Part shown: positions 1 to 20,023 of the stretch, in pieces | How the letters are laid out: each line of letters opens with the position of its first letter | Numbering within the stretch: the first letter of the stretch is position 1 | From: a virus | Strand: one strand, 5' to 3' | Virus genome (UHGV): UHGV-0242051 | DNA: 20,023 bases | The notes under the pieces: model-generated | What the model was told of the DNA's origin: nothing | Database searches by the model: none | Seen by the model: the letters and a program-made list of their open reading frames with translations, nothing else | Translations under genes and position numbers: made by a program

Positions 1-2134
1 TAGCACCTCCAATGGCGCTGCCGATACTCCCGACAATCCCCACCATTGCCTGCTTAAGCAGAATTTCTGTCATCATGGACAGCACGGAACGGGTGAAGCT
101 GCGCCAGTTCTGCTCACTGCCGGTCAGCATCGCCGCCATATTCTGTGCAATACCATCAAAGGTCTGCGTGGCTGCACTTTTTACCTGCGACATACTGTCC
201 GTGGCGCTCTCTTCCCACTCACTCCAGCCGGACTTCAGGCCTGCCATCCAGTTCCCGCGAAGCTGGTCTTCAGCCGCCCAGGTCTTTTTCTGCTCTGACA
301 TGACGTTATTCAGCGCCAGCGGATTATCGCCATACTGTTCCTTCAGGCGCTGTTCCGTGGCTTCCCGTTCTGCCTGCCGGTCAGTCAGCCCCCGGCTTTT
401 CGCATCAATGGCGGCCCGTTTTGCCCGTTGCTGCTGTGCGAATTTATCCGCCTGCTGCGCCAGCGCGTTCAGGCGCTCCTGATACGTAACCTTGTCGCCA
501 AGTGCAGCCAGTTGGCGTTTGTACTCCAGCGTCTCATCTTTATGCGCCAGCAGGGATTTCTCCTGTGCAGGCAGCTGGCGACGTTGCGCCGCCTCCTCCA
601 GTACCGCGAACTGACTCTCCGCCTTCCACAAATCCCGGCGCTGCTGGCTGATTTTCTCATTTGCTCCGGCATGCTTCTCCAGCGTCCGGAGTTCTGCCTG
701 AAGCGTCAGCAGGGCAGCATGAGCACTGTCTTCCTGACGATCGCCCGCAGACACCTTCACGCCGGACTGTTTCGGCTTTTTCAGCGTCGCTTCATAATCC
801 TTTTTCGCCGCCGCCATCAGCGTGTTGTAATCCGCCTGCAGGATTTTCCCGTCTTTCAGTGCCTTGTTCAGTTCTTCCTGACGGGCGGTATATTTCTCCA
901 GCGGCGTCTGCAGCCGTTCGTAAGCCTTCTGCGCCTCTTCGGTATATTTCAGCCGTGACGCTTCGGTATCGCTCTGCTGCTGCGCATTTTTGTCCTGTTG
1001 AGTCTGCTGCTCAGCCTTCTTTCGGGCGGCTTCAAGCGCAAGACGGGCCTTTTCACGGTCATCCCAGTAACGCGCCCGCGCTTCATCGTTAACAAAATAA
1101 TCATCCTTGCGCAGATTCCAGATGTCGTCTGCTTTCTTAAACGCAGCCTCTGCCTTAATCAGCATCTCCTGCGCGGTATCAGGACGACCAATATCCAGCA
1201 CCGCATCCCACATGGATTTGAATGCCCGCGCAGTCCTGTCTGCCCAGGTCTCCAGCGTGCCCATGTTCTCTTTCAGGCGGCGGGTCTGGTCATCAAACCC
1301 TTTCGTTGCGGCCTCGTTCGCCGCCTGCAATGCCCCGGCTTCATCGCCGGAACGCTGCAACTGAGCAACATACGCAATCTGCTCCGCCGTCACGTTATGG
1401 AACTGGCGTGCCATCGCCGTCAGCCCCGACGTCGGGTCTGTGGTCAGCTTCCCGAAGGCTTCAGCGACCTTGTCCACCTCCACGCCGGATGCAGAGGAGA
1501 AACGCGCCACACTCTGGCTGATGGACGCAATCTGAGCCTCACCGCTTACCCCCGCCTTAACCAGTGCGCTGAGTGACTCGCTGGTCTGGTTAAACGTCAG
1601 CCCTGCCGCCTGCCCGGCTCTGGACAGGACCAGCATACGATCTGCCGTCAGTCCCGCCTGATTGCCGGAAAGGACCAGCGTTTTGTTGAAATCGGACAGG
1701 GTTGAGTTGCCCTGATACCATGCATACGCCAGCGCACCGGTCGCCACCGCCAGCGAGGTGGCCCCCACCATCGGCAGGGTGATCGCACCGGCAAGCCCCC
1801 TGAACATGGGGATCATCCCGCCGAAGGAGTCCTTCACCTGCCCCCCCTGTTGCAGCAGGATCAGCCACGGACTTTGCCCGCCTGCAAGCTGCGTGGCCAC
1901 GTCGGTGAACTGTGCAGGCAGCATACGCATGGCGGCTTTATACTGCCCGACGGAAATCCCCGCTTTCTGTGCAGCCAGCGCCTGTCGGCTCAGCGACTGT
2001 TCAACGACTGCCGCTGTTTTTTTCGCATCACTTTCCGTACCGGAAAAATGACGCCTGACTCTGGCCATCTGCTCGTCAAATCTGGCCGCATCCAGACTCA
2101 AATCAACGACCAGATCGCCTACCGGTTCAGCCAT
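1..2134 (-). CDS. H: Tail tape measure protein, 5' portion only (about 711 codons); 3' end lies beyond window start
   Basis: ATG at 2134..2132 overlapping the T stop; minus-strand translation starts MAEPVGDLVVD and the codons at the window start read ...LLKQAMVGIVGSIGSAIGG, both matching remembered lambda gpH; reading frame is the same at both ends. Absent from the ORF track because no stop codon falls inside the window. Confidence 0.9.
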   Translation of the reverse strand, partial: MAEPVGDLVVDLSLDAARFDEQMARVRRHFSGTESDAKKTAAVVEQSLSRQALAAQKAGISVGQYKAAMRMLPAQFTDVATQLAGGQSPWLILLQQGGQVKDSFGGMIPMFRGLAGAITLPMVGATSLAVATGALAYAWYQGNSTLSDFNKTLVLSGNQAGLTADRMLVLSRAGQAAGLTFNQTSESLSALVKAGVSGEAQIASISQSVARFSSASGVEVDKVAEAFGKLTTDPTSGLTAMARQFHNVTAEQIAYVAQLQRSGDEAGALQAANEAATKGFDDQTRRLKENMGTLETWADRTARAFKSMWDAVLDIGRPDTAQEMLIKAEAAFKKADDIWNLRKDDYFVNDEARARYWDDREKARLALEAARKKAEQQTQQDKNAQQQSDTEASRLKYTEEAQKAYERLQTPLEKYTARQEELNKALKDGKILQADYNTLMAAAKKDYEATLKKPKQSGVKVSAGDRQEDSAHAALLTLQAELRTLEKHAGANEKISQQRRDLWKAESQFAVLEEAAQRRQLPAQEKSLLAHKDETLEYKRQLAALGDKVTYQERLNALAQQADKFAQQQRAKRAAIDAKSRGLTDRQAEREATEQRLKEQYGDNPLALNNVMSEQKKTWAAEDQLRGNWMAGLKSGWSEWEESATDSMSQVKSAATQTFDGIAQNMAAMLTGSEQNWRSFTRSVLSMMTEILLKQAMVGIVGSIGSAIGGA

Positions 2135-2567
2135 ACCGGACTCCTCCTGCGATCCCTTCTGATACTGTCATCAGCATTACGTCATCCTCCGTCATGTCCG
2201 CCACATCCGGGGAAGCGGGGATAACTTCATTCCCGTCCGGGCCAAAGCGGACACCTCCAGCAAGCCCTGCCGCTTTCTGCATCAGCACATCATCTTCAGG
2301 CTCTTCGTCAGCCTCGCGCCGGTTCAGCAGACTGAAATCCAGCGGATGCATATCCGGATCGCTGAAAAACAGGCTGAGCACGGTGTACGTCAGCCCGGAA
2401 AAGTGCATATCCAGCAGAACATCATGAAAATAATGGGTACTGTAAAAGCGGTGCCAGTCGGCATACTCCGTGGATGACATCCCGGCAAGCATGGCACGCC
2501 AGTCGGGTCGCCCCATCTCACGCGCCAGTTTCAGGGCAAAACTCAGCTCACCGTCGAACACTTTCCC
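2127..2567 (-). CDS. T: T-frame segment of the G-T fusion protein, reached by -1 programmed frameshift from G
   Basis: Track ORF 2127..2561 (VFDGELSFALKLAREMG...) is in the -1 frame relative to G and starts at the slippery heptamer; its stop overlaps the H start by 8 nt, as in lambda. Confidence 0.85.
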   Translation of the reverse strand, partial: GKVFDGELSFALKLAREMGRPDWRAMLAGMSSTEYADWHRFYSTHYFHDVLLDMHFSGLTYTVLSLFFSDPDMHPLDFSLLNRREADEEPEDDVLMQKAAGLAGGVRFGPDGNEVIPASPDVADMTEDDVMLMTVSEGIAGGVRYG

Positions 2568-2965
2568 GCAGAAACAGGCTCTGCGGGCCCGGCGTCCTCT
2601 GTCTGTTCAGGGGCATTATTCACCACAAACTCATACATACCAGACAGCCGGTACACCACGTTTTCAGCATGAGAAATTGCCTCCGTGGGCCAGGTGGTAA
2701 GCACGTCCTGCTCAATCTGTTTAACGGCTTCATTCATGGACGGCATCTGCGTCTTCTGCGGATGGTTATGCCACAGGGACATCGCCACCAGAAACGCGCC
2801 GGTTCTGATGGCGTCTTCCACAGTAAACTTCCGGTTGCTGTCTGACTCCGCCTGTTCTGCCTGCCGTTTCATCAGGGCGAGATGCTCAATGCGCTGCAGG
2901 GCTGACAGTTCAGAAAGCGTGACGGTCACACCGTTATGTTCAAATGATTCGGTTTTCAGGAACAT
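2543..2965 (-). CDS. G: Tail assembly chaperone G
   Basis: 140-aa track ORF (MFLKTESFEHNGVTVTLSEL...) matches remembered lambda gpG in length and sequence. Confidence 0.95.
   Translation of the reverse strand: MFLKTESFEHNGVTVTLSELSALQRIEHLALMKRQAEQAESDSNRKFTVEDAIRTGAFLVAMSLWHNHPQKTQMPSMNEAVKQIEQDVLTTWPTEAISHAENVVYRLSGMYEFVVNNAPEQTEDAGPAEPVSAGKCSTVS
2561..2567 (-). promoter_or_regulatory. Slippery heptamer G GGA AAG for the G to G-T -1 ribosomal frameshift
   Basis: Plus strand reads ctttccc here, so minus strand reads GGGAAAG, positioned so GGA and AAG are the G-frame codons 7 codons before the G stop. Confidence 0.8.
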
Positions 2966-2980
2966 CGCTGACTCTCCGGA

Positions 2981-3721
2981 TTAACTGGCGGTGACGTTGA
3001 TTTCTGCAACCGCAGCAAACTCACCATTACCGGATACCACCGGAATGTTGACCTTACCTGCAGCAACGCCGTTCACGGTGATGGTCATACCACTGACCGA
3101 CACGGTGGCTTTTGTTTTATCCGCAGACACCGCACGGAAGCTCTTGTCGGTTACGCCTTCCGGCTGGAATGCCACGGTCAGCGTGGTGCTCTGCCCTTTC
3201 ACTACGGAAGCACTGGCTGGTGTTACCGTCATGCCGGTTGCCGCTGTTACTGTGCTGCGATCTTCTGCCATCGACGGGCGTCCCACATTGGTGACCTTCA
3301 CCGTGCGGGTGATCACTTCCTTCGCCGTCACCGCCTTACCGATACTGCTGACCCAGCCACGGAACACATCGACCGTGCCGTTCGGGAAGCGGATTTTATA
3401 GGCACGGGTATCACCTTCATTAAACCACGCCAGCAGCGCCTGCTGCCCCTGCTCTCCGGGCATCCACGCCAGCGTGAAGCTGGTATCTCCGGCTGATTTC
3501 TGCCCCTGCCCGGTCGCAGTCCAGTCTGCATCTTCATCATCGAGATAGCTGTCGTCATAGGACTCAGCGGTCAGTTCGCCGGGCGTCAGGTCTTTAACTT
3601 TAGCCAGACGCGACCAGTCAACGTCTGAAAGCGGGTTCGCATAAGGGTCACCGTTCCCCTTATAAACCCACAGTGTGGTCCCGGCACCTTTCACCGGCAT
3701 TGTTGGATTTGGTACAGGCAT
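2981..3721 (-). CDS. V: Major tail tube protein V
   Basis: Track ORF 2981..3751 contains [22 protein letters not shown]...; start moved in-frame to Met11, giving 246 aa like lambda gpV. Confidence 0.95.
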
Positions 3722-3728
3722 AGCGTCC

Positions 3729-4124
3729 TCACATTTCATAGGTAATGACATACGTCAGATCGGCTGAACTCCACAGGCCCGCATCATCGTCGCGCCGGTA
3801 GTCATAGCCACTGGCCACCATACTGGTGATCAAATCTGACAGTGCCGGGATATCGCTCATCACCGGATAAATCCGGGACTCCATCCACGAATCCAGCTCT
3901 GAATCCGGCACCTGAGCAGGCAGGAAAACTTCAATATGCAGCTCCGCCTGCCAGGTATCGCTGTCCAGCTCTTCGCCCGTGTATTCAGCGCCGGTGAGAT
4001 AAACGGCAATTGCCGGAAAATCTTCCTCATCAAAAACAGCGGGGCGACCATCAAAAAGCGTCGCCCCGGTGTCATGCTTCTCCAGTGCATCCAGTACGGC
4101 TGCACGGAGTTCAGTATGTTTCAT
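3729..4124 (-). CDS. U: Tail terminator protein U
   Basis: 131-aa [29 protein letters not shown]... matches remembered lambda gpU; start overlaps the Z stop. Confidence 0.95.
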
Positions 4125-4699
4125 CGCTTTATTACCATTCTCAGTTGATGCTGCAGCGCATAGCCCAGCTCTTTCGGAAGACGTTCACGCCGTATCCGTT
4201 CAATATTCTGTTTAAACGCCGTGGTAAGCGGCACCGCCATCGGGATTTTCACCACATCAATGGGGTAACGGTTTTTCCCGGCCACACGCTGCATGACATG
4301 CCACCGGCCATTTTTCAGTTGCTGAATAAACGCGCCGGGAATACGACGGTTCCCCACCACAAGCACGCTGCCGCCACCTTTCAGGGATGAACGCTGCCCC
4401 TTTTTACGACGCCTGCGGCGGGACAGGACAACCCGCGCATTACCCAGCTTGATTACGGGCAAATCCCCCCGGTTAACTTTGATTCTGGCCTGCGGGTTTT
4501 TGACCGTGGCCCTTTTCAGCCTGGCCCTTTCCTTTACCAGTTTCCGGCGTACCTTTGTCTCACGGGCAACCTGTGACGCCGACTGCGATATCGCGGATGA
4601 AGCAACGCGGTTAATGGCCATTGCGGCGGCACCGGGCACCGCCGTTTTGCTGATACGGCTGAGGTTTTCAACGGCCTGCTCAAGACCTTTTATGGCCAT
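4121..4699 (-). CDS. Z: Tail completion protein Z
   Basis: 192-aa ORF MAIKGLEQAVENLSRISKTAVPG... matches remembered lambda gpZ. Confidence 0.95.
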   Translation of the reverse strand: MAIKGLEQAVENLSRISKTAVPGAAAMAINRVASSAISQSASQVARETKVRRKLVKERARLKRATVKNPQARIKVNRGDLPVIKLGNARVVLSRRRRRKKGQRSSLKGGGSVLVVGNRRIPGAFIQQLKNGRWHVMQRVAGKNRYPIDVVKIPMAVPLTTAFKQNIERIRRERLPKELGYALQHQLRMVIKR

Positions 4700-4710
4700 A
4701 CATCCCCCTT

Positions 4711-5064
4711 TCAGCGGCGACGGTTAACGGCAGGCGGCACGCCCCGTCCAAGCCAGAGATGACAGCTTCCGCCATCATCCGGCGAAACCCGATCTACCCA
4801 GAAATTTTCCTCACCGATGGTCAGCGTGTCTCCACGCCGCAGCTGCCGCACCTCATCAGTCCGGACAAACAGGGACGGGCTGGAGCCTTCAACGCGCACG
4901 CCCTGTCCGGCATAGCTGATATTTTCAGGGTCATCAAAAACACCACGTATCACCGCACCGGACTGCTCACCGGATGTAATGGTTGCTGACGTTCCCATGT
5001 ACCCGCGTATCGTTTCATCGGCGCGGGCAATGGCAGCATCGAACAGGTTATCGAAATCAGCCAC
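4711..5064 (-). CDS. FII: Head-tail connector protein FII
   Basis: 117-aa ORF MADFDNLFDAAIARADETIRGYMG... matches remembered lambda gpFII. Confidence 0.95.
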   Translation of the reverse strand: MADFDNLFDAAIARADETIRGYMGTSATITSGEQSGAVIRGVFDDPENISYAGQGVRVEGSSPSLFVRTDEVRQLRRGDTLTIGEENFWVDRVSPDDGGSCHLWLGRGVPPAVNRRR

Positions 5065-5075
5065 AGCGCCTCCCG

Positions 5076-5474
5076 TTATTGCATTCTGGCCAGGCCGCGC
5101 TCTGTCATTTCGGCTGCCACACCGGCAGAGACACGAAACGCCGTTCCCGGCAGCACAAATGCCACAGGTTCATCCCGCGTGGCGTGAAGTGCATCAGTAT
5201 GCAGCTTCACCAGTGCCACGACCGTGACCAGTTCAGACGTATCCAGAATCACGGTATCCGGCTGCGCTGATCCCACCTCATTTTCATGTCCGGTCAGCAC
5301 ATTTTCCCGGCTGAGAGGGGTGTCCTGACCGGCAGTTTCATCCGTGTCATCAAGCTCCTCTTCCAGCTCTGCCACACGGAGCGCCAGTTCTTCTTTCGTC
5401 CCCGTCAGGCTGACATCACGGTTCAGTTGTTCACCCAGCGAGCGGAGACGGGCAATCAGTTCATCTTTCGTCAT
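5076..5474 (-). CDS. FI: DNA packaging accessory protein FI
   Basis: Track ORF 5076..5513 contains MTKDELIARLRSLGEQLNRDVSLTG...; start moved in-frame to Met14, giving 132 aa like lambda gpFI. Confidence 0.9.
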   Translation of the reverse strand: MTKDELIARLRSLGEQLNRDVSLTGTKEELALRVAELEEELDDTDETAGQDTPLSRENVLTGHENEVGSAQPDTVILDTSELVTVVALVKLHTDALHATRDEPVAFVLPGTAFRVSAGVAAEMTERGLARMQ

Positions 5475-5515
5475 GGACTCCTCCACAGAGAAACAATGGC
5501 CCCGAAGGGCCATGA

Positions 5516-6541
5516 TTACGCCAGTTGTACGGACACGAACTCATCAGGGTCAGCCAGCAGCATCAGCGGTGCTGACTGAATCATGGTGAACTCACGCGCC
5601 GGATCGCCGGTGGTCACCCAGTTTTTCGGGTAACGGGCAGAGGCGTTAATGCCTTCGCGCTGTGCGTCCGCATCCTGAATGCAGCCATAGGTGCGCAGAC
5701 CGCGTGCCTGAGTGTTCCCCAGCACCATCGTGTTGTCCGGCAGGAAGTTCTTTTTGACGCCGTTTTCCACGTACTGTCCGGAATACACGACGATGGCCAC
5801 ATCGCCATACATCCCCTTATAGGACACCGCTTTACCTAGGTCTTTCACCGCTGTCTCCAGCTCGGAATGAGAGCCGCGACGAGTATCCAGCTTCTCCTTG
5901 ACGGCTTTGAAGGAACGGAACAGCGCCCAGCCTTTCGGATCGAACACGATGATATTCACCACACCGCTGGCGTTCAGCGCGTAGGCTTCGATATCGTCGG
6001 TCGGGTCATACGTGGACTTGTCACGCTTGCTCCACTCCGTGCCGCCGGACTGCGTGATGTTATTCTCCTCACTGCGGCCCATATCCACCTCAACCGGATC
6101 GAAGGCTTCACCGGTCATGGTGTATTTGCCCTTAAGCACGGCAGAAACTGCCTGCATCTCTTCGACCTGAGCAATGGCCAGCTCTTCGTCACGCATGTTC
6201 TGCATGATGATGCGACGGCGGCGGTAAGCCGGGTCCGCCAGATTCTGCGGATCTTCATCCGGCAGGCGACGCAGGGTCATCTGCGGATTCACTTCATGCT
6301 TGGGTTTGACATATCCCGGCGTAAATTCAGAGGTGGAGCCGCCACGGGAACGGATAACCTCACCGGAAACAATCGGCGAAACGTACAGCGCCATGTTTAC
6401 CAGTCCCGGAATTTGTGAGAGATAGACTTTCTCCGTGGTGAAGGGATAGCTCTCACGGAAAAAGAGACGCAGAAACAGCGGATCAAACTTAAATTTCTGC
6501 TCATTTGCCGCCAGCAGTTGGGCGGTTGTGTACATCGACAT
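5516..6541 (-). CDS. E: Major capsid protein E
   Basis: Track ORF 5516..6568 contains MSMYTTAQLLAANEQKFKFDPLFLRLFF...; start moved in-frame to Met10, giving 341 aa like lambda gpE. Confidence 0.95.
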   Translation of the reverse strand: MSMYTTAQLLAANEQKFKFDPLFLRLFFRESYPFTTEKVYLSQIPGLVNMALYVSPIVSGEVIRSRGGSTSEFTPGYVKPKHEVNPQMTLRRLPDEDPQNLADPAYRRRRIIMQNMRDEELAIAQVEEMQAVSAVLKGKYTMTGEAFDPVEVDMGRSEENNITQSGGTEWSKRDKSTYDPTDDIEAYALNASGVVNIIVFDPKGWALFRSFKAVKEKLDTRRGSHSELETAVKDLGKAVSYKGMYGDVAIVVYSGQYVENGVKKNFLPDNTMVLGNTQARGLRTYGCIQDADAQREGINASARYPKNWVTTGDPAREFTMIQSAPLMLLADPDEFVSVQLA

Positions 6542-6596
6542 AAAAAAATCCCGTAAAAAAAGCCGCACAGGCGGCCTTTAGTGATGAAGGGTAAAG

Positions 6597-6929
6597 TTAA
6601 ACGATGCTGATTGCCGTTCCGGCAAACGCGGTCCGTTTTTTCGTCTCGTCGCTGGCAGCCTCCGGCCAGAGCACATCCTCATAACGGAACGTGCCGGACT
6701 TGTAGAACGTCAGCGTGGTGCTGGTCTGGTCAGCAGCAACCGCAAGAATGCCAACGGCAGCACCGTCGGTGGTGCCATCCCACGCAACCAGCTTACGGCT
6801 GGAGGTGTCCAGCATCAGCGGGGTCATTGCAGGCGCTTTCGCACTCAATCCGCCGGGCGCGGTTGCGGTATGAGCCGGGTCACTGTTGCCCTGCGGCTGG
6901 TAATGGGTAAAGGTTTCTTTGCTCGTCAT
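6597..6929 (-). CDS. D: Capsid decoration protein D
   Basis: Track ORF 6597..6935 contains [27 protein letters not shown]...; start moved to Met3, giving 110 aa like lambda gpD. Confidence 0.95.
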
Positions 6930-6938
6930 AAACATCCC

Positions 6939-7544
6939 TTACACTGGTGTGTTCAGCAAATCGTTAACGGCATCAGATGCCGGGTTACCTGCAGCCAGCG
7001 GTGCCGGTGCCCCCTGCATCAGACGATCCAGCGCAGTGTCACTGCGCGCCTGTGCACTCTGTGGTGCTGCGGCCAGAATGCGGCGGGCCGTTTTCACGGT
7101 CATACCGGGGGTTTCTGCCAGCACGCGTGCCTGTTCTTCGCGTCCGTGAGCCTCCTCACAGTTGAGGATCCCCATAATGCGGCTGTTTTCTGCCGCAACC
7201 GCTGCGGTGATCTGCGCGTTCACGTCCGGCTGCGCCGCGCTGGCGTTCTCGCCCTCCGTCGCTGGCACCACGTCAGTAACGTCAGCCTGCGAAGCAGTGG
7301 CTGAAACAGTTGTTGATTGAGTCTCTTTGGTCATTCGCCCTCCTGAGAGACGGGATTTACGTGCATCCAGTGCATCACGCATGACGGTGATCGCATCGGT
7401 GCTGTTAACAAGTTCATCAGCCAGTCCGGCATCAATGGCCTCCTGACCGCTGTACACTGCAGCCTCGGTATCCAGCACAGCCTGCACGGACAGGCCGGTA
7501 TATGCCGACACCTTCTGCGCAAACATCTGGCGGGTTGCGTCCAT
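6939..7544 (-). CDS. Nu3: Scaffold protein Nu3, nested in-frame in the 3' end of C
   Basis: Internal in-frame Met beginning MDATRQMFAQKVSAYTGLSV..., 201 aa to the shared stop, matching the lambda C/Nu3 nested arrangement. Confidence 0.8.
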   Translation of the reverse strand: MDATRQMFAQKVSAYTGLSVQAVLDTEAAVYSGQEAIDAGLADELVNSTDAITVMRDALDARKSRLSGGRMTKETQSTTVSATASQADVTDVVPATEGENASAAQPDVNAQITAAVAAENSRIMGILNCEEAHGREEQARVLAETPGMTVKTARRILAAAPQSAQARSDTALDRLMQGAPAPLAAGNPASDAVNDLLNTPV

Positions 7545-8238
7545 CCGGGACTGCAGTGTCTCCCGGACGTCATCCGGAAGATGGCTGTAGGGGTTGCCAT
7601 CCACCTTATGGCTGCCGCTGTAAATCAGCGTGATTTCCACACCCTGTTTCTCCAGCGCAGCACCGTAATTACTGTGAGCCATCATGACGCCGATGGAGCC
7701 TGTCCGGGCGGTCTGCGTGACCAGACGCCGGGAGGCGGCACTGGCAAGCAACTGACCTGCACTGCAGTTCATGTCGTTGGCAAGCGCCCATACCGGTTTT
7801 ATGTCACGCACACGGGCGATGATGTCAGCGCAGTCAAATGCCCCCGCCACCATCCCGCCGGGCGTGTCCATATCGAGCAGAATGCCGTCCACCATCGGAT
7901 CGCTGGCAGCCTGTTGCAGACGGGCGATAATGCCGTTGTAACCGGTCATCCCCGAGTACGGCTGCAGCGCCCGCGTCCGGCTGACCAGCGTGCCGGACAC
8001 CGGCAGCACGGCGATGCCGTTCATGACCTGATAACTGCGGGCCTGTCGTGGTCCGTCATCATCACCGGATAATGCCAGCGTCGCGAGTGCCTCCTGGGCA
8101 GTCAGGCTGTCGCCGGACACCGCATCCGTCAGGCGGCTGATCCCAAGCTGGCCTGCAAGCGCACAAAAGAAAACCCGCGCATAGGCGGGTTCAAGCATCA
8201 GCGGCTCATTAAAGGCCATGCTGGCAATATGCGGGAGA

Positions 8239-8258
<20 letters not shown>
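6939..8258 (-). CDS. C: Head maturation protease / scaffold protein C (ClpP/S49-like), GTG start overlapping the B stop
   Basis: Track ORF 6939..8393 contains (V)TAELRNLPHIASMAFNEPLMLEPAYARVFF...; counting back 439 codons puts the start on a GTG at 8258, overlapping B by 20 nt as in lambda. Confidence 0.9.
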
Positions 8259-11939
<3,681 letters not shown>

Positions 11940-11965
<26 letters not shown>

Positions 11966-12485
11966 TCAGCAACCCCGGTATCAGTTCATCCAGCGCGGCT
12001 GCTTTGTTCATGGCTTTGATGATATCCCGTTTCAGGAAATCAACATGTCGGTTTTCCAGTTCCGGAAAACGCCGCTGCACCGACAGGGGGAGCCCGTCGA
12101 GAATACTGGCAATTTCACCTGCGATCCGCGACAACACGAAAGTACAGAATGCGGTTTCCACCACTTCAGCGGAGTCTCTGGCATTCTTCAGTTCCTGTGC
12201 GTCGGCCTGCGCACGCGTAAGTCGATGGCGTTCGTACTCAATAGTTCCTGGCTGGAGATCTGCCTCGCTGGCCTGCCGCAGTTCTTCAACCTCCCGGCGC
12301 AGCTTTTCGTTCTCAATTTCAGCATCCCTTTCGGCATACCATTTTATGACGGCGGCAGAGTCATAAAGCACCTCATTACCCTTGCCACCGCCTCGCAGAA
12401 CGGGCATTCCCTGTTCCTGCCAGTTCTGAATGGTACGGATACTCGCACCGAAAATGTCAGCCAGCTGCTTTTTGTTGACTTCCAT
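11940..12485 (-). CDS. Nu1: Terminase small subunit Nu1
   Basis: 181-aa ORF MEVNKKQLADIFGASIRTIQNWQEQGMPVLRGGGKGNEVLYD... matches remembered lambda Nu1; sits directly next to cosB. Confidence 0.95.
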
Positions 12486-12700
12486 TGTTCATTCCACGGA
12501 CAAAAACAGAGAAAGGAAACGACAGAGGCCAAAAAGCTCGCTTTCAGCACCTGTCGTTTCCTTTCTTTTCAGAGGGTATTTTAAATAAAAACATTAAGTT
12601 ATGACGAAGAAGAACGGAAACGCCTTAAACCGGAAAATTTTCATAAATAGCGAAAACCCGCGAGGTCGCCGCCCCGTAACCTGTCGGATCGCCGGAAAGG
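12486..12700 (-). other. cos packaging site: cosB (Nu1-binding R-type repeats), cosN, cosQ-side flank
   Basis: Between the Nu1 start and cosN lie the repeats gaaaggaaacgacag (about 12511), ctgtcgtttcctttc (about 12551, inverted relative to the first) and gaacggaaacg (about 12613), resembling lambda R3/R2/R1; the flank past cosN resembles the remembered lambda right end. Confidence 0.85.
12663..12674. other. cosN: 12-nt cohesive-end sequence (aggtcgccgccc on plus strand = reverse complement of lambda GGGCGGCGACCT)
   Basis: Exact 12-mer read in the sequence, correctly placed about 180 bp upstream of the Nu1 start. Confidence 0.85.
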
Positions 12701-12873
12701 ACCCGCAAAATGATAATAATTATCATCTGCATGTCACAACGTGCATCTACGCCATCAAACCACGTCAAATAATCAATTATGACGCAGGTATCGTATTAAT
12801 TGATCTGCATCAACTTAACGTAAAAACAACTTCAGACAATACAAATCAGCGACACTGAATACGGGGCAACCTC

Positions 12874-13068
12874 ATGTCAACTAAGAACAGAACCCGCAGA
12901 ACAACAACCCGCAACATCCGCTTTCCTAACCAAATGATTGAACAAATTAACATCGCTCTTGAGCAAAAAGGGTCTGGGAATTTCTCAGCCTGGGTCATTG
13001 AAGCCTGCCGTCGGAGACTAACGTCAGAAAAGAGAGCATGTACATCAATCCAAAGTGATGATGAATAA
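12874..13068 (+). CDS. Hypothetical 64-aa protein with a possible ribbon-helix-helix (Arc/CopG-like) DNA-binding fold
   Basis: Track ORF MSTKNRTRRTTTRNIRFPNQMIEQINIALEQKGSGNFSAWVIEACRRRL...; basic N-terminus followed by a strand-helix-helix-like pattern. Opposite strand to late genes, between cos and bor. Weak RBS; fold assignment is a guess. Confidence 0.4.
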   Translation: MSTKNRTRRTTTRNIRFPNQMIEQINIALEQKGSGNFSAWVIEACRRRLTSEKRACTSIQSDDE

Positions 13069-13427
13069 ACATCCCGGTTTCTTCCACCATCGCACCGGAA
13101 AAGCGACTATGAGGGTAACCCTGCGTCTGTCAGCACAGTAAAACCCGGTGTGCATCGTTTTTGATTATTCCCGCACACTCACGCAGAAGGAATTCCCCGT
13201 CGGGCTACGGTCATGGTTAATGCGGGAATACGGCGACGATACAGCGCAGCTAAAAGGGTAATGGACAGAAAGAGCGGTTTATTTCATTCCACAGGATTCT
13301 GAGTGCCCCCCTCCTCCAATAGGCTGAGCATCCACCTATATAGTTTTAATTTTCATCAATCCATTTAACTATCGTTTAATTGTTGTCACATAGGATTCTG
13401 CCGTTTTTAACAATGCAGGATAATAAG

Positions 13428-13721
13428 ATGAAAAAAATGTTGTTTTCTGCCGCTCTGGCAATGCTTATTACAGGATGTGCTCAACAGACGTTTACTGTTG
13501 GAAACAAACCGACAGCAGTAACACCAAAGGAAACCATCACCCATCACTTCTTCGTTTCGGGAATTGGACAGGAGAAAACTGTTGATGCAGCCAAAATTTG
13601 TGGCGGCGCAGAAAATGTTGTTAAAACAGAAACCCAGCAAACATTCGTAAATGGATTGCTCGGTTTTATTACTTTAGGCATTTATACTCCGCTGGAAGCG
13701 CGTGTCTATTGCTCACAATAA
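13428..13721 (+). CDS. bor: Bor outer-membrane lipoprotein (serum-resistance moron)
   Basis: Track ORF 13380..13721 contains MKKMLFSAALAMLITGCAQQTFTV... with lipobox LITGC; 97 aa from Met17; opposite strand to late genes as in lambda. Confidence 0.95.
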   Translation: MKKMLFSAALAMLITGCAQQTFTVGNKPTAVTPKETITHHFFVSGIGQEKTVDAAKICGGAENVVKTETQQTFVNGLLGFITLGIYTPLEARVYCSQ

Positions 13722-13752
13722 TTGCATGAGTTGCCCATCGATATGGGCAGCT

Positions 13753-14214
13753 CTATCTGCACTGCTCATTAATATACTTCTGGGTTCCTTCCAGTTGTTT
13801 TTGCATCGTGATCAGCCTCTCTCTGAGGGTGAAATAATCCCGTTCAGCGGTGTCTGCCAGTCGGGGGGAGGCTGCATTATCCACGCCGGAGGCGGTGGTG
13901 GCTTCACGCACTGACTGACAGACTGCTTTGATGTGCAACCGACGACGACCAGCGGCAACATCATCACGCAGAGCATCATTTTCAGCTTTCGCATCAGCTA
14001 ACTCCTTCGTGTATTTTGCATCGAGCGCAGCAACATCACGCTGACGCATCTGTATGTCAGTAATTGCCGCGTTCGCCAGCGTCAGTTCTCTGGCATTTTT
14101 GTCGCGCTGGGCTTTGTAGGTAATCGCGTTATCGCGGTAATGATTAACAGCCCAAGACAGGCAGACGATGATGCAGATAACCAGAGCGGAGATAATCGCG
14201 GCAACTCTTCTCAC
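13753..14214 (-). CDS. Rz: Spanin, inner-membrane subunit Rz
   Basis: Track ORF 13753..14229; from the internal GTG the product is 153 aa (..[42 protein letters not shown]...), near-identical to remembered lambda Rz; start overlaps the R stop (GTGA). Alternative start at 14229 possible. Confidence 0.88.
13812..13994 (-). CDS. Rz1: Spanin, outer-membrane lipoprotein subunit Rz1 (embedded in +1 frame of Rz)
   Basis: 60-aa [63 protein letters not shown] with lipobox VVGC and proline-rich tail, nested inside Rz. Confidence 0.9.
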
Positions 14215-14744
14215 TGATCTATCCCCCAACAGGCTAATGCGCTTTCCTGGTCACGACGAATAACCTGTCCGTAGCAGTTATTTGAACGTGTGCGGCAATC
14301 ACGCCCACCGTCCTTAATCCACCAGCGAATCGACTCACAGGCACCTTTACGATCACCGGCATTAAGCCGCTTATAAAACGTCGACGGGAAACACTTACCG
14401 GGGCCAATGTTATAGGGGCAAAATGACGCGATACCTGCTTTTTGTGGCTCGGTCAGTGGAACTTTTATATTACGCTCCACCCATGCCAGCGCCTTATCCC
14501 GCTCAATGGCGTTAACCTGGGCGCATTTTTCCTTCGACAGTTTCATGCCCGGAATAACAGGTTTACCATCCACCACCGTGGCACCCCGGCAAATGGTCCA
14601 TATGCCGGAACCATCGCGGTATGCCTTTGTGTGGTTACCCTCTTTTTCGTCCAGAAACTGGTCAAGTATCTGAGGAGCAGACGCGCCTGCGGCAATCAGC
14701 GCCAGAACAGCAGCCGACAGGCCGTATCTGATTTTTACGTTCAT
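14211..14744 (-). CDS. R: Endolysin, T4-lysozyme-type (GH24) with N-terminal SAR/signal-like hydrophobic segment (phage 21 R21-type)
   Basis: 177 aa; N-terminal Gly/Ala-rich hydrophobic stretch ([18 protein letters not shown]) then E35-(8 aa)-D44-(5 aa)-T50 spacing of the T4 lysozyme catalytic triad ([23 protein letters not shown]). Not the lambda transglycosylase R. Confidence 0.88.
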
Positions 14745-14878
14745 GGATATTTATCAGGATTTATCGGTTTCTGAACCCTGGATATGTTAAGCATTCAGCC
14801 CGTCAGTGGTAGGACACTGGCGCTCTGGTTAAGGATTATGGGGGATGCTGGCTGAGCTACCCCATCTGAGGATTTGAT

Positions 14879-15118
14879 ATGCAAAAAGAAGTTTTTATCA
14901 ATATTACAGCTGACTGCTCATCTCCTGCATCAACAGCAAAAGAAATTGAAGCTCTTAAATATATGATTACAGTAATATTTTCCGTATTGGACCAGAATGA
15001 AAAAAATGGAATCATTCATCAATTAAATGAACATGTAAATAATCCATATATCAAAAGCAATCTGGAAATGCTGCTACCAATGAAAGATATTGGAAAACCA
15101 ACTGAAACAAAAGGCTAA
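14879..15118 (+). CDS. Hypothetical 79-aa protein, AT-rich moron ORF of unknown function
   Basis: Track ORF MQKEVFINITADCSSPASTAKEIEALKYMITVIFSVLDQNEKNGIIHQ...; GAGGA Shine-Dalgarno about 7 nt upstream of ATG; markedly AT-rich codon usage versus flanking genes; opposite strand to the lysis genes; terminator-like hairpin downstream. No family recognised. Confidence 0.5.
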   Translation: MQKEVFINITADCSSPASTAKEIEALKYMITVIFSVLDQNEKNGIIHQLNEHVNNPYIKSNLEMLLPMKDIGKPTETKG

Positions 15119-15429
15119 CAACCAGTAATCGAGTTATCTGAACTGTTAATTTTTATGGTATACCGCGCCTCTGAACAGGGGCGCGTTTCTGGCAACAGCT
15201 CGTCCCCTTCACATAACCCGGCAGCAACATCCAGGAAGACCTGTCTGATGCTCCTTCTGGCTGCAGCCTCATAAAACTCCAGCGCGGCACCTTCAACACG
15301 GTCCAGCGAGATGTCCAGGTCAAAAATTTCACCGTCAAAGCGTTTTTTGTCCCGTAACGCTAAAGTTACCGTAACTTTATTCTCAAAATTGCGGATCCCT
15401 TTCACAATCAGTTCATAGTTTTGAGTCAT
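15115..15429 (-). CDS. YdfR-like small protein of unknown function, encoded between holin and endolysin
   Basis: 104-aa track ORF MTQNYELIVKGIRNFENKVTVTLALRDKKRFDGEIFDLD...; position matches the ydfR slot of Qin-type lysis cassettes, from recall. The last ~16 codons are encoded by the AT-rich moron DNA, so the native C-terminus may have been replaced. Confidence 0.6.
   Translation of the reverse strand: MTQNYELIVKGIRNFENKVTVTLALRDKKRFDGEIFDLDISLDRVEGAALEFYEAAARRSIRQVFLDVAAGLCEGDELLPETRPCSEARYTIKINSSDNSITGC
15164..15190 (+). terminator. Possible intrinsic terminator for the 79-aa moron transcript
   Basis: cgcgcc-tctgaaca-ggcgcg stem-loop followed by tttct, about 45 nt after the moron stop. 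It lies inside the 3' coding end of the convergent YdfR-like ORF. Coordinates +/-2. Confidence 0.35.
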
Positions 15430-15433
15430 TGAA

Positions 15434-15649
15434 TTACTCTCCCCGTGCAGCCTTACGCTTATCTTCTTTAATCTTGAAATAAAGGTTTGTCAGGTACGTC
15501 AGCAGGCCAAATACCAGGCTACCCAGCACACCTATTGCCGCCCACTGTGAGGGCGTGACTTTATCGAGCAACTGTAAAAACCAGTACCCGGCACTACCTG
15601 CTGAGGTGCCATAGGCGACACCCGTTGTTAACTTATCCATGGATTTCAT
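15434..15649 (-). CDS. S: Class II holin, phage 21 S21-type pinholin (71-aa antiholin form; 68-aa holin from Met4 at 15640)
   Basis: [71 protein letters not shown]: dual-start motif M-K-S-M, two hydrophobic segments, charged C-terminus; closely resembles remembered S21. Confidence 0.9.
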
Positions 15650-15776
15650 AACCCCACCTCGCAGACAAAGCGGGTGTAAATTAAGGGGATACTACGTATC
15701 GCAATAAAGGCAGAAACGTAACAGATTCGGAGTCAGTGAATAACTCAGGTATTGGGTTATCAGCTAATATCGAGAC

Positions 15777-15810
15777 TCAAAAAATGGAAAAACCCGCTCG
15801 ACGGCGGGTT
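15777..15810 (-). terminator. Intrinsic terminator on the late-transcript strand, about 130 nt upstream of the holin gene
   Basis: Minus strand reads aaacccgc-cgtcga-gcgggttt followed by ttccatttttt. Coordinates +/-2. Confidence 0.5.
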
Positions 15811-16237
15811 TAAGCTGTGTGACGAAGTAACCACTCTTAACAGCATAACCAATTTTTTACGTACGTAAACTACTAAATGATATTTGTGAGAATGCCACCG
15901 AGTGTTCAAAACACCACCACAAATGCATAAGAAAACTTCAACAAATAACCAGTTAATAATTTCCGATGTTATTTTTAGTTTGTTTAAATTAAGCTAAAGA
16001 ATTATAGAGCACTTATAAATAAGTGCCATTAATATAAATTAGCTAATAGATTTATTTTTGTTCAGACAAGAGCCATGAATAGGATTAGATAGAAAAGGTT
16101 CAGATAAAAATAGAGATCTACTTCACAAATTAAATGAGAAACTAAAACTTACATCTTGAAATAATCACATTGATTAGATGAATATTTATCGCGCAGTGAC
16201 ATCATTTTTTAATAAAAGTTCAAAAAAAGGGCGTACA

Positions 16238-17320
16238 ATGAAAAAATTAACAGTGGCAATTTCTGCTGTAGCTGCATCAGTACTGATGGCGATGTCTGCT
16301 CAGGCAGCTGAAATTTATAATAAAGACAGTAACAAGCTGGATCTATACGGGAAAGTTAATGCCAAGCACTACTTCTCCTCTAATGATGCAGATGATGGTG
16401 ATACTACTTATGCCCGTCTTGGCTTCAAAGGTGAAACCCAAATCAACGATCAACTGACTGGTTTCGGTCAGTGGGAATATGAATTCAAAGGCAACCGTGC
16501 TGAATCTCAAGGTTCTTCCAAAGACAAAACCCGTCTTGCATTTGCAGGCCTGAAATTTGGTGATTACGGCTCAATCGATTACGGCCGTAACTACGGTGTA
16601 GCATACGACATCGGTGCGTGGACTGACGTTCTGCCAGAATTCGGTGGTGATACCTGGACCCAAACAGATGTGTTCATGACTGGTCGCACTACTGGTGTTG
16701 CAACTTATCGTAACAACGACTTCTTTGGTCTGGTCGATGGCCTGAACTTTGCTGCTCAGTATCAGGGTAAAAATGACCGCACTGACGTAACTGAAGCCAA
16801 TGGTGATGGTTTCGGTTTCTCCACTACTTATGAGTATGAAGGATTCGGCGTGGGTGCAACCTATGCTAAATCAGATCGCACTGACGGTCAGGTCGCCTAT
16901 GGTAAGAGCAAATTCAATGCCTCCGGCAAAAATGCGGAAGTATGGGCTGCAGGCCTGAAATATGATGCGAACAATATCTATCTGGCTACCACATATTCTG
17001 AAACTCAGAATATGACCGTTTTTGGTAATAACCATATTGCAAACAAAGCACAAAACTTTGAAGCAGTAGCACAATATCAGTTTGACTTCGGTCTGCGTCC
17101 ATCTGTTGCTTACCTTCAGTCAAAAGGTAAAGACCTTGGTGTTCATGGTGACCGAGACTTAGTCAAGTATGTCGATGTCGGTGCTACTTACTACTTTAAT
17201 AAAAACATGTCCACTTTTGTTGATTACAAAATCAACTTAATTGACGATAGTAAGTTTACCAAAACAGCTGGTATTGATACCGACGACATCGTCGCTGTAG
17301 GTCTGGTTTATCAGTTCTAA
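16238..17320 (+). CDS. nmpC: General porin of the OmpC/OmpF family (NmpC/Lc-type phage-borne porin), with signal peptide
   Basis: Track ORF 16178..17320; from Met21 [23 protein letters not shown]|[16 protein letters not shown]..., 360 aa ending VAVGLVYQF (C-terminal Phe beta-barrel signature); closely resembles remembered NmpC/OmpC. Same slot between Q and holin as in DLP12/PA-2. Confidence 0.95.
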
Positions 17321-17338
17321 TCTGACTTACGAAAAAGA

Positions 17339-17375
17339 TATGTTGCGGGAGGCTTTGCCTCCGCAACATATAAGT
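17339..17375 (-). terminator. Intrinsic terminator on the late-transcript strand downstream of Q (candidate tR')
   Basis: Minus strand: near-perfect 15-bp stem (atatgttgcggaggc / gcctcccgcaacatat, loop caaa) immediately followed by cttttt. Coordinates +/-2. Confidence 0.5.
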
Positions 17376-17457
17376 GGAGCCCTCAAGCCACTTCCTTTAG
17401 AAGCACTACCTTGCTTCTTACTATATAAACCTTCTGTTATATATTACCCTTTATTTT

Positions 17458-17482
17458 GGGGGCGTTTCCACGCCCCATTTTT
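17458..17482 (+). terminator. Intrinsic terminator on plus strand (end of nmpC transcription unit, shielding Q from antisense read-through)
   Basis: gggggcg-tttcca-cgcccc followed by atttttaa on plus strand, about 27 nt past the Q stop. Coordinates +/-2. Confidence 0.5.
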
Positions 17483-17508
17483 AATAACTTTTAGTAAACA
17501 ATTGCATA

Positions 17509-17892
17509 TCAATTAGAATTATTAGCAACGATATCCATATCTAACCGGATATCTAATGCCATTAACATCCCTTCAATTATGCCCTCAGCCTTCTGTAACC
17601 TTTTCCCGATATAACCATCCGAGCAGCAATGCTTACTTGCCAGTGACATGAATGTCATACCACATACATAATAATCTACTAATAAATCGTGTAAATCGCT
17701 GTTGTTCTTTTTCAGACGGGCCATGCACCCGCAAATGATCATCGCGTCATCGTCACAACATTGCGGGCGAGATTTTACTTTTGAAGGAATTAATCCCTTA
17801 AAACCGGCGGCAATGGACGACCAGGTCACATCTTCATGATTATTAGCCGCCCACGCACCCCAACGCTCAAGAACCATCTGAATATCACGCAT
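17509..17892 (-). CDS. quuD: Late-gene antiterminator, Q family (QuuD/phage-82-type, not lambda Q)
   Basis: Track ORF 17509..17907 begins at a TTG; likely real start is the ATG at residue 6 ([24 protein letters not shown]...), giving 127 aa; cysteine-rich region [16 protein letters not shown] suggests zinc binding; position between rusA/ylcG and the lysis genes. Confidence 0.8.
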
Positions 17893-17977
17893 CAACTTAC
17901 TCCACAAAAATCAGACCAGAACGCCAATTACAAGCAAAAATCAACAAAACAGTATTAGTTGATTGTTATCTCTGACT

Positions 17978-18118
17978 TCATACTCCTGTTCCTGTCAGGG
18001 TTTTGGCGTAATTCTTCAGTATTCGGTAATCGGTCAAAACAGAACCGAGGAAACGATATAAGCGCAGACGCCCCCAGCGATGGCGAAGAAGTTCTGCCAT
18101 ATTAAACTCAAACATCAT
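17978..18118 (-). CDS. ylcG: Small ORF (about 46 aa) in the ylcG position between rusA and Q
   Basis: ATG overlapping the rusA stop (ATGA); hand translation [23 protein letters not shown]... Below the track's length cut-off. My hand copy of this stretch was inconsistent by one nucleotide, so end and C-terminal sequence are uncertain. Confidence 0.5.
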
Positions 18119-18477
18119 TCATTCCCCATTTCGGTGATGGTCAGTTCCAGCCTCCCACCTTTGGTAACAGGCATCTTCACAACGCGGTAATCAACGACCT
18201 GAGCATCATCCAGCCAGAAACCTGCTTTAGTGAGTGCGTCAAAAGCGGCTTTTTGCAGATTATCCAGGTCACGGCGACGGCGATCCGGCATGTGGCACTC
18301 AATGCGGATTTTCACAGGCATAGCCAGGCCGATATCCAGCATTGCGTTTTTAATGATTCGGGCGACGTTATCGCGGTATGCCTGCCCCTCTGCGCTGACG
18401 TGCGTGCGCCCGCGATTATGGCGGTAATAGCGATTATTGCTCGGAGGCCAGGGTAATGTGATGCTGTAGGTATTCAC
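18115..18477 (-). CDS. rusA: Holliday junction resolvase RusA
   Basis: 120-aa ORF (GTG start) [94 protein letters not shown]... matches remembered RusA. Confidence 0.95.
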
Positions 18478-18600
18478 GCCTTAATAACCCCCTCTTTCAG
18501 CCACATAACCTGTGTTCTCGCCATACCTTCCAGCGCGCATTCTTTTGCATATGCAGCATCGACTTGCTTGGCATGCCCTTTACCGGCAATCTTCTGTATG
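18474..18600 (-). pseudogene. 3' remnant of a ybcO-like gene (about 41 codons), N-terminal part missing
   Basis: Minus-strand frame reads ...[30 protein letters not shown] then TGA overlapping the rusA GTG, matching the remembered C-terminus of DLP12 YbcO; an in-frame TAG sits just upstream and the sequence above about 18600 is unrelated. Identification is from recall only. Confidence 0.5.
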
Positions 18601-18683
18601 CGCTAAACCTAGATAGAATCCACTCTGTGCACATTGAAGCCCGCTCTATGCTTTCTTTCAGGTATTGAAGGGATTGAGATGGG

Positions 18684-19031
18684 CTAAGCATTATTGGCCT
18701 CCTGCATCAGGAGAAAGACAATCATGGCGGCGCGGAGAGGTCTGGTATCAAATATTGGGCTTACGCCTTTTGCATCCACACACCATTCAGTTAACTGGTC
18801 TAAGATAGAAATCCTGTATTTCTCAATAATCGGCCATGAAGCGCTCGGATCATTGCAGTAGTCAGGCAAATGATTTAATGGCTCAAAAGTTGTATCAGCA
18901 TTTCCGTAATACCATTTGTTGGTGTTATTCCCTGATGTTTCCGGTTTACTTGCCCAAAGGCCTTTAAAAATTATGTCTCCTACCATTCTGTTAATTTCAA
19001 AATCACTTAACTGTGAATAATCCATTGTCAT
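18684..19031 (-). CDS. Hypothetical nin-region protein, about 115 aa
   Basis: Track ORF 18684..19067; likely start is the ATG overlapping the ninE stop (ATGA), giving [89 protein letters not shown]... No family recognised. Confidence 0.6.
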
Positions 19032-19204
19032 TTCCTCGCACGATATCTTAGCCACCGGATATCCCACAGGTGGGCTGTGTAATTGAAGGTTTTTACGTCA
19101 GATTCTTTTGGGATTAGCTTGCGTTTATTTCTGGAGCGTTTCGTTGGAAGGTATTTGCAGTTTTCGCAGATTATGTCGGTGATGCTTCGTCGCTGTCGTC
19201 TCAT
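19028..19204 (-). CDS. ninE: NinE-like protein
   Basis: Track ORF 19028..19294; from the internal Met [58 protein letters not shown] (58 aa) resembles remembered NinE; start overlaps the methyltransferase stop. Confidence 0.8.
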
Positions 19205-19728
19205 GCAGCCCTCCTGACGCCCTGCCCGATCGCCATCAATGCCGCTTTGGATACGGTAGTAAACATCCGTCGAGGACTGATGAACGGTCGCCAAATCAGC
19301 AGCATGGAGCCTTTGCTGTTTCCCTTCTTCTCCAGCCCTGTCGATGGTTCGATAAAATTAATCCGTCCATCAGTGATAATACGAACTTCGTCAACACTCT
19401 CCAGAGCCTTGCTGAACCATCCGACAGACATATCCTCTGGCACAAGCATCACTACCGTCTGTCGCTGTTGTATACACTGCTCAGCGGCTTTTTCCACCCA
19501 CGGCCTGATATTGCTGTACGGTGGGTTATTCCAGATTGCACCGTGGCTTACCCACTCAGAATTGAGCGCGTCGTCGTCCTCAGTTAGCCAGTGAGCGCAC
19601 AGAGCATTTTTGTCGCTCGCTGCCGAATCCAGCCAGAATCCAAACTCAATATCCAGTGCATCAAAAAGCCAAAGCGGCGTTTGCCAGCAGTCCTTGTCGT
19701 GTGCTGGCGTATTTGATTTGATAGTCAT
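19201..19728 (-). CDS. Phage Dam-type DNA N6-adenine methyltransferase
   Basis: Track ORF 19201..19788; likely start Met21 ([30 protein letters not shown]...) preceded by GGGGAGA about 9 nt upstream; catalytic motif IV NPPY ([10 protein letters not shown]); 175 aa. Confidence 0.85.
19373..19476. repeat. Arm 1 of a 104-bp inverted repeat (inside the methyltransferase gene, codons about 105-139)
   Basis: Exact reverse complement of 19817..19920 by hand comparison; inner end falls in TGTATACA. Confidence 0.85.
19618..19721. repeat. Copy 1 of a 104-bp (or longer) direct repeat (methyltransferase 5' coding segment)
   Basis: Identical to 19920..20023 by hand comparison (cgctgccgaatccagccagaatccaaactcaat...gtatttgatttga). 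Confidence 0.85.
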
Positions 19729-19816
19729 GCAGCCCGATCTCCCCATCGCGCTTTCCATTCGAGAGCCAGTCGCGCTTCGTCTGACCACTTAACGCCACGC
19801 TCTGTACCGAATGCCT

Positions 19817-19920
19817 TGTATACAACAGCGACAGACGGTAGTGATGCTTGTGCCAGAGGATATGTCTGTCGGATGGTTCAGCAAGGCTCTGGAGAGTGTT
19901 GACGAAGTTCGTATTATCAC
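19817..19920. repeat. Arm 2 of the 104-bp inverted repeat (inverted copy of the internal methyltransferase segment, upstream of the gene)
   Basis: Plus strand here encodes [35 protein letters not shown], identical to methyltransferase residues, and is the exact reverse complement of 19373..19476. Confidence 0.85.
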
Positions 19921-20023
19921 GCTGCCGAATCCAGCCAGAATCCAAACTCAATATCCAGTGCATCAAAAAGCCAAAGCGGCGTTTGCCAGCAGTCCTTGTC
20001 GTGTGCTGGCGTATTTGATTTGA
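19920..20023. repeat. Copy 2 of the direct repeat, abutting inverted-repeat arm 2 with 1-nt overlap and running to the window edge
   Basis: Identical to 19618..19721; true extent unknown because the window ends. Confidence 0.85.

Follow-up and report, generated by a model that had tools for sequence, protein, structure and literature searches.

Inverted and direct gene copies at the end of an Escherichia coli prophage sequence are probably a technical chimera

Introduction

How did two pieces of one gene, the first inverted and the second direct, come to be joined at the very end of a prophage sequence? The question is raised by the final 207 nucleotides (19817-20023) of the E. coli prophage sequence UHGV-0242051, the whole stretch of which (20,023 nucleotides) was analyzed here and is called the window below. 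A preliminary description of this DNA, made from its letters alone, had noticed both copies in this tail and offered several origins for them, some of them biological and one of them technical. We therefore ask whether the tail belongs to the prophage genome and, if so, by which event it arose, or whether it was made on the way from DNA molecule to assembled sequence.

Results

The window is a lambdoid E. coli prophage whose nin region contains rusA, ninX, ninE, a Dam-family methyltransferase gene and ninB. Phage lambda contigs share 99.3-99.4% identity with the left ~13 kb, which holds the tail, head and packaging genes. Lysis genes, a prophage porin, quuD, ylcG, rusA, ninX, ninE and the methyltransferase make up the right ~6 kb. 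This part has 99.4% identity to strain TUM13773, and its last 924 nucleotides share 99.9% identity with the prophages of Nissle 1917, ATCC 25922 and other ExPEC-type strains. Among complete genomes and phage records, the best match to the whole window has ~98.4% identity. The one contig found to encode the same 256-amino-acid tail protein V, from E. coli H588, is 97.5% identical over 2-4839, and the contigs that share the head-decoration protein, which are those of phage lambda and its relatives, are 98.5-99.4% identical. The proteins at the right end of the window are each found on at least 1000 contigs, and so is the exact methyltransferase protein. The region occurs in a median of 2 and up to 10 copies per carrying genome, and these paralogues are mostly 95-99% identical.

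Several other features of the window are worth recording. It is a mosaic of a lambda-like structural and packaging part (1-13085) and an ExPEC-type lysis-porin-Q-nin part (13772-19816, 99.4-99.9%), and its portal, Nu1 and Z proteins bear lambda's names in the protein collection. A segment of ~1 kb (12725-13772), missing from the close relative TUM13773, is a typical lambdoid moron region, in which a small DUF3950-like ORF (12874-13068) is accompanied by an ORF for a Bor-like lipoprotein (within 13380-13721). The prophage porin gene (OmpC/NmpC-type, 360 amino acids, 16238-17320 on the plus strand, called "porin OmpC" in the references) sits between the lysis genes and the Q antiterminator on the strand opposite to its neighbors. 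Between rusA and ninX (~18474-18563, minus strand), the references have a truncated DUF1364 pseudogene ("incomplete; missing N-terminus"), a remnant that appears to be present in the window too. At the left edge (1-14), the first 8 nucleotides differ from all relatives at positions 1, 5 and 8, all synonymous third-codon positions of the tape-measure gene, and identity is perfect afterwards. Every BLAST alignment begins at base 2, which places the left edge exactly on an allele boundary and hints that the window may be a whole contig, broken at a repeat or mosaic boundary.

Both copied pieces come from the methyltransferase gene near the right end (Table 1). The product of this gene matches the Pfam family PF05869 over its full length (219 bits against a cut-off of 28.1; profile positions 1-167 of 169), and collinear genomes annotate it as "phage N-6-adenine-methyltransferase". 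In the reference genomes, the methyltransferase gene is followed by ninB, ren, P and O.

Table 1. Features at the right end of the window
Feature	Position	Strand	Remarks
Intact phage Dam-family N-6-adenine methyltransferase gene, 175 amino acids	19201-19728	-	PF05869, E = 3.7e-65; source of both copied pieces
Segment A, internal piece of the gene, recurring inverted at 19817-19920	19373-19476		104 nt, 100% complementary; ends in TGTATACA
Segment B, 5' coding piece of the gene, recurring directly at 19920-20023	19618-19721		104 nt, 100% identical
Authentic ninB 3' end, last ~29 codons and stop, overlapping the methyltransferase start	19725-19816	-	Identical to E. coli ATCC 11775 through 19816
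Junction 1, ninB (GCCT) to reverse complement of segment A (TGTATACAAC...)	19816-19817		Natural ninB has G at 19817
Copy A', exact inverted copy of 19373-19476	19817-19920		Repeat comparison
Junction 2, end of inverted copy (...atca-c) to segment B (c-gctgcc...)	19919-19921		1-nt overlap
Copy B', exact direct repeat of 19618-19721, reaching the window end	19920-20023		Repeat comparison
Spurious 70-amino-acid ORF over both junctions	19811-20023	+	Stop codon 20021-20023; Dam profile positions 83-122 only

An exact repeat comparison reproduced the coordinates given in the preliminary description for the inverted and the direct copy, together with their overlap of 1 nucleotide, which is base 19920 (c). 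The flanking bases mismatch on each testable side, including the left flank of the direct copy (T versus A), so that both repeats are exactly 104 nucleotides long; the direct copy ends where the window ends. The palindrome TGTATACA, said to lie at the inverted junction, is present at 19469-19476 and again at 19817-19824, and the distance reported between the inverted copy and the start codon is also correct (ATG at 19728, 88 nucleotides ahead of 19817). No 20-mer outside the two repeats is repeated on either strand of the 20,023-nucleotide window, and the exact 104-nucleotide repeats are therefore not a product of chance. Since both copies are 100% identical to the window's own gene, whereas paralogous prophage copies are mostly 95-99% identical, the tail derives from the window's own sequence. 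In this arrangement, perfect inverted arms of 104 nucleotides flank 19477-19816, a segment that comprises the methyltransferase start and the upstream region.

The plus-strand ORF that spans both junctions had been described as a chimera of the two pieces, and this is borne out. Its match to the Dam profile is restricted to positions 83-122 because the ORF reads the inverted gene piece; it results from the copying and is not a gene. An in-frame TGA at the very end of the window makes the ORF resemble a complete gene of 70 amino acids; with its Dam-domain match, it could be mis-annotated as a methyltransferase fragment. The products of the junction-spanning ORFs (34, 43, 56, 70 and 101 amino acids) were absent from ~15 billion proteins in an exact look-up, and so was the tape-measure product that is truncated by the left edge of the window.

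Where does the authentic prophage sequence end? Collinearity with the references stops at 19816, 88 nucleotides into the 3' end of ninB, and the translation of the preceding stretch from 19725 is the C-terminus of NinB. Past this point, the references read G-TATAAGCTC..., whereas the window reads T-GTATACAACAGC..., the beginning of the inverted gene piece. The intact ninB continuation is GCCTGTATAAGC..., and in the window the ninB frame is broken by stop codons after the ~29 remaining codons. The upstream nin neighbors had been reported as missing; ninB, however, is only partly missing from the window, as its last ~29 codons are in place.

We then compared the alleles of ninB at the breakpoint. 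The base following 19816 in ninB is G in at least 120 IMG/VR contigs. T and A at this position gave one isolated match each, that for T being an unrelated chance 18-mer, and C gave none; T, A or C was found in no genuine ninB in IMG/VR. Mosaic boundaries of lambdoid phages are located at the border between the methyltransferase gene and ninB (window ~19725-19760), and a further ninB boundary in IMG/VR contigs lies ~30 nucleotides past the breakpoint (~19845), after ...GCAAATTCG. At this further boundary one contig (L116, 4684-4760) turns to unrelated sequence, and another (L019) ends exactly there. A natural fork at 19816 in a polylysogen was considered and rejected, because G is found in all genuine ninB alleles and the mosaic boundaries lie at the two other places. 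The end of the authentic sequence at 19816 is thus not accounted for by natural variation.

The main clue is the equal length of the two repeats, on which the preliminary description had not remarked. The longest repeated word in the window is exactly 104 nucleotides, with two such words (starting at 19817 and 19920), and the number of repeated 105-mers in the 20,023-nucleotide window is zero. The new 105-mers, 207 in number (starts 19713-19919), form one unbroken chain. The tail is the union of all 105-mers that hold junction 2 (a-c-g), and it is 207 rather than 208 nucleotides long because of the 1-nucleotide overlap at this junction. If the direct copy continued, its next 105-mer (19920-20024) would be expected to equal the genuine word 19618-19722, which would account for the halt at 20023 in a graph with k = 105. 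We estimate that the two lengths of 104 nucleotides would coincide by luck, through an arbitrary cut of the window or through biology, in about 1 in 100 cases or fewer. The tail also shows two features of a chimeric graph edge, namely flanks of the fixed length k-1 without a repeated k-word and junctions that are not reproduced in independent assemblies of related genomes. The anomaly is located at one end of the window, and the other end falls on an allele boundary.

The two junctions are different in kind. At junction 1, the parental sequences TGTATA (19816-19821) and TATACA (19471-19476) form the sole 6-nucleotide inverted repeat at the breakpoints. The join contains an extra T, whereas a clean switch would read GCC-TGTATA-CAACAG. 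In simulation, a near-match of this quality to an inverted repeat has a chance of ~0.7%, which suggests that a DNA molecule, whether cellular or in the library, switched strands and so gave rise to junction 1. Junction 2 has no inverted repeat of 5 nucleotides or more within 15 nucleotides on either side. With 1 nucleotide of homology and no inverted repeat, it seems a poor fit to an in vivo polymerase strand switch primed by base pairing.

The same structure was sought elsewhere with a 201-nucleotide query across both junctions. Only the separate parental pieces were found in 5,426 complete E. coli genomes, 50,697 phage records and 72,556 plasmids, and the best place covers 52% of the query. 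Exact junction patterns of 33-34 nucleotides were likewise absent from GTDB species representatives, IMG/VR and JGI metagenomes. A comparison with related prophages had been proposed as a check on the arrangement; the junctions occur in none of them, and in the references ordinary ninB follows the methyltransferase. Our search for literature specifically on a contig-end artefact of this sort found none.

Discussion

We conclude that the tail 19817-20023 is probably a technical chimera on the end of a draft contig and does not belong to the genome. Four things are observed directly: the exact repeats, the k-mer arithmetic, the collinearity up to 19816 and the absence of the junctions elsewhere. 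A technical origin is favored by the location of the anomaly at the very end of a sequence whose left end also falls on an allele boundary. It is favored as well by the 104-nucleotide repeats, which are the only repeated words of 20 nucleotides or more, and by the identity of the tail with the 105-mers over junction 2. The perfect identity of the copies to the window's own gene and the absence of the junctions from all collections searched argue in the same direction, as do the lack of a natural fork at 19816 and of an inverted repeat at junction 2. From these observations we infer that 20023 is the end of a contig, that the assembly was made with k = 105 or with some other fixed unit equivalent to 104 nucleotides, and that read support for the tail is low.

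Such a chimera could have formed in the following way. Authentic prophage sequence would run to 19816, within the 3' end of ninB, and a short piece would come thereafter. In this piece, position 19373 on the bottom strand of the methyltransferase gene would be connected with position 19619 on the top strand. The points linked by this inversion-type junction would be 245 nucleotides apart and hence within one library fragment, a pattern typical of chimeric library molecules and mis-joined read pairs. With k = 105 in a de Bruijn graph, one junction would give rise to a new edge with 104 nucleotides (k-1) of known sequence on each side, and with an overlap of 1 nucleotide this edge would be exactly 207 nucleotides long, spanning 19817-20023. 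Its placement after the true contig end may be due to another chimeric junction at the short natural inverted repeat TGTATA/TATACA, or else to scaffolding or gap closing. Illumina libraries are documented to yield, as an artefact, inverted chimeric reads in which the strand changes at a short natural inverted repeat or palindrome (PMC10908179). Among the origins proposed beforehand, an assembly chimera comes closest to this conclusion, but it had been pictured as one between similar prophages, whereas the copies are 100% identical to the window's own gene.

Some considerations weigh against a technical chimera. A valid path with k = 105 through both junctions needs a spacing of exactly 104 nucleotides between them. 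If both junctions came from real molecules, this spacing would be a coincidence of roughly the order estimated above for the equal lengths; if junction 1 were a plain scaffolder abutment, its placement on the 6-nucleotide inverted repeat would be the coincidence, with about the probability given by the simulation. Low-coverage chimeric words are removed by most assemblers, and the contig crosses segments A and B the first time unbroken, which suggests that the junction words were supported or resolved by reads. To our knowledge, k = 105 is not a default of common assemblers.

We also examined whether the tail could consist of concatenated mates of 104 nucleotides from read pairs left unsplit. 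In the reverse direction, it can be read as 19722 down to 19619, then 19373 up to 19476, then from 19816 downwards. The inserts of 350 and 444 nucleotides are plausible, and the middle 104 nucleotides are explained. This was kept only as a technical variant, as it leaves the clean 19.8-kb contig unexplained and the end falls one base short. An argument from junction topology was dropped, since every inversion junction, taken in one of its orientations, reads like a forward-reverse mate pair and is therefore uninformative.

The main rival, which we regard as unlikely, is a real, one-off and strain-specific template switch during replication of ninB. After leaving its template at 19816, the nascent strand would have paired with the opposite strand at TGTATA/TATACA, copied 104 nucleotides backwards (19476 to 19373), gone back to the first template at 19619 and continued there. 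Such an event would insert 302 nucleotides into ninB, namely a 104-nucleotide inverted piece and a 198-nucleotide duplication of 19619-19816, and the assembler would then have broken the contig inside the new 198-nucleotide direct repeat. The sequence after 20023 is predicted to be TAGTCATGCAGCCCG..., leading onward to intact ninB. The path up to 19816, down from 19476 to 19373 and up again from 19619 has the geometry of a two-step switch within 444 nucleotides, and a reverse-complement tract from nearby followed by a return to the first strand is seen as far as the window extends. That junction 1 falls on the sole 6-nucleotide natural inverted repeat at the breakpoints (chance ~0.007) and that the junction words survived assembly are also in accordance with a real event, and a break 104 nucleotides into a longer direct repeat is the outcome expected of a graph with k = 105. 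In E. coli, mutation by template switching at quasipalindromes is established (PMC7202029), and long perfect hairpin arms or inverted repeats can be created by template switching (PMC8794818).

On the other hand, such a switch requires the inverted piece to be exactly k-1 = 104 nucleotides by coincidence (~1 in 100), junction 1 is made unclean by the extra T, and junction 2 has 1 nucleotide of homology and no inverted repeat. The absence of the structure from other genomes and collections is compatible with a one-off event and adds no support to it. Documented quasipalindrome events are much shorter. The earlier proposal of a quasi-palindrome template switch or inverted duplication retains its place as the main rival; junction 1 does fall on a natural 6-bp inverted repeat, but the unclean join and the unsupported junction 2 speak against it. 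Should the tail be real, it would be one of the rare instances in which a large prophage insertion made by a two-step template switch is fully resolved. Its interest for the study of mutational mechanisms would be modest, and the only gene disrupted would be the non-essential ninB.

It is very unlikely that the tail reflects real recombination with another prophage that lies beyond the window and carries a second methyltransferase gene, or that two similar prophages of a polylysogen were merged in assembly. Copies of the region are common (median 2, up to 10 per carrying genome) and often break assemblies, and other contigs have a natural ninB mosaic boundary and a contig end only ~30 nucleotides away. 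The pieces are, however, 100% identical over 207 nucleotides to the window's own gene, in contrast to the 95-99% identity of most paralogues. In addition, the first piece is inverted and just 104 nucleotides long, the junction homology of 0-1 nucleotide does not resemble a homologous crossover, and no such joint occurs in any of the 5,426 complete E. coli genomes. Perfect identity and the lack of the junctions in all other records searched accordingly weaken the idea, raised earlier, of a recombination joint with a paralogous copy.

Still less probable is a combination in which the tail is real, its 104-bp inverted repeat was born of a template switch, and RecA-dependent inversion could now toggle the methyltransferase as a newborn phase switch. 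RecA-dependent inversion between 104-nucleotide arms of this kind is physically possible. If this were true, a newly arisen methyltransferase phase switch would have been caught at birth.

The least credible of the readings is a functional invertible switch, in which a 340-nucleotide flip of the promoter and 5' half of the methyltransferase gene would turn phage Dam methylation on and off. Formally, the perfect 104-nucleotide inverted repeats do flank the 5' half of the gene and its upstream region, so that inverted repeats surround the promoter or 5' end of the gene as in such a switch. The arrangement is nevertheless absent from thousands of related prophages and destroys ninB, and the arm length equals that of the truncated direct copy, which points to a technical origin. 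Conservation in relatives and the presence of both orientations would be expected of a switch, and no other record with the arrangement, in either orientation, was found among E. coli genomes, phages and plasmids. The annotations of the collinear regions list structural, lysis, porin, Q, rusA, nin, ren, P and O genes only and contain no invertase or recombinase, although RecA could also mediate inversion. The recombinational switch that had been listed as a less likely option therefore finds no support: no relative has the arrangement, no recombinase is annotated, and the lengths are better fitted by the k-mer arithmetic.

If the preferred reading of the tail as an artefact is right, self-copied contig-end tails with equal k-1 lengths can mimic inverted duplications, gene fragments and invertible switches, and they should be filtered before biological interpretation. 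The diagnostic applied here, which is cheap and reusable, is to find the longest repeated word in a contig and to ask whether the tail equals the k-mers that span one junction.

How does the tail compare with known systems? It shares with invertible phase-variation switches of DNA methyltransferases and restriction-modification specificity genes gene-internal inverted repeats that flank the 5' end of the gene. It differs from them in having no recombinase, no conservation and no evidence of two orientations, and in that the second arm lies in a truncated neighbor gene at the end of the sequence.

The likeness to quasipalindrome template switches (PMC7202029, PMC8794818) is greater in form: a nearby stretch of the opposite strand is copied in inverted orientation, a return to the first strand follows, a short inverted repeat is found at the first switch, and a long perfect inverted repeat is made. 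In contrast to these switches, the tract here is 104 nucleotides long and the jumps (340 and 245 nucleotides) are far above the typical size. At one switch the microhomology is imperfect, at the other there is none, and the event is a single occurrence that bears the length signature of k-1.

Library strand-switch chimeras (the PDSM model, PMC10908179) and fold-back artefacts likewise join opposite strands of one short region, and junction 1 falls on a short natural inverted repeat and the palindrome TGTATACA, as in PDSM chimeras. Unlike in that model, there is an extra base at the join, and junction 2 is without an inverted repeat. Moreover, PDSM and fold-back artefacts have been described for single reads and do not normally find their way into contigs.

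Finally, a chimeric edge of a de Bruijn graph differs from the tail in one respect, since the join at junction 1 would be a k-1 overlap only if another chimeric junction lay at a distance of exactly 104 nucleotides. In the other respects, the tail agrees with a chimeric edge or tip: it is positioned at the end, its flanks have the equal length k-1 = 104 with no 105-mer repeated, it consists of the words over one junction, and independent assemblies lack it.
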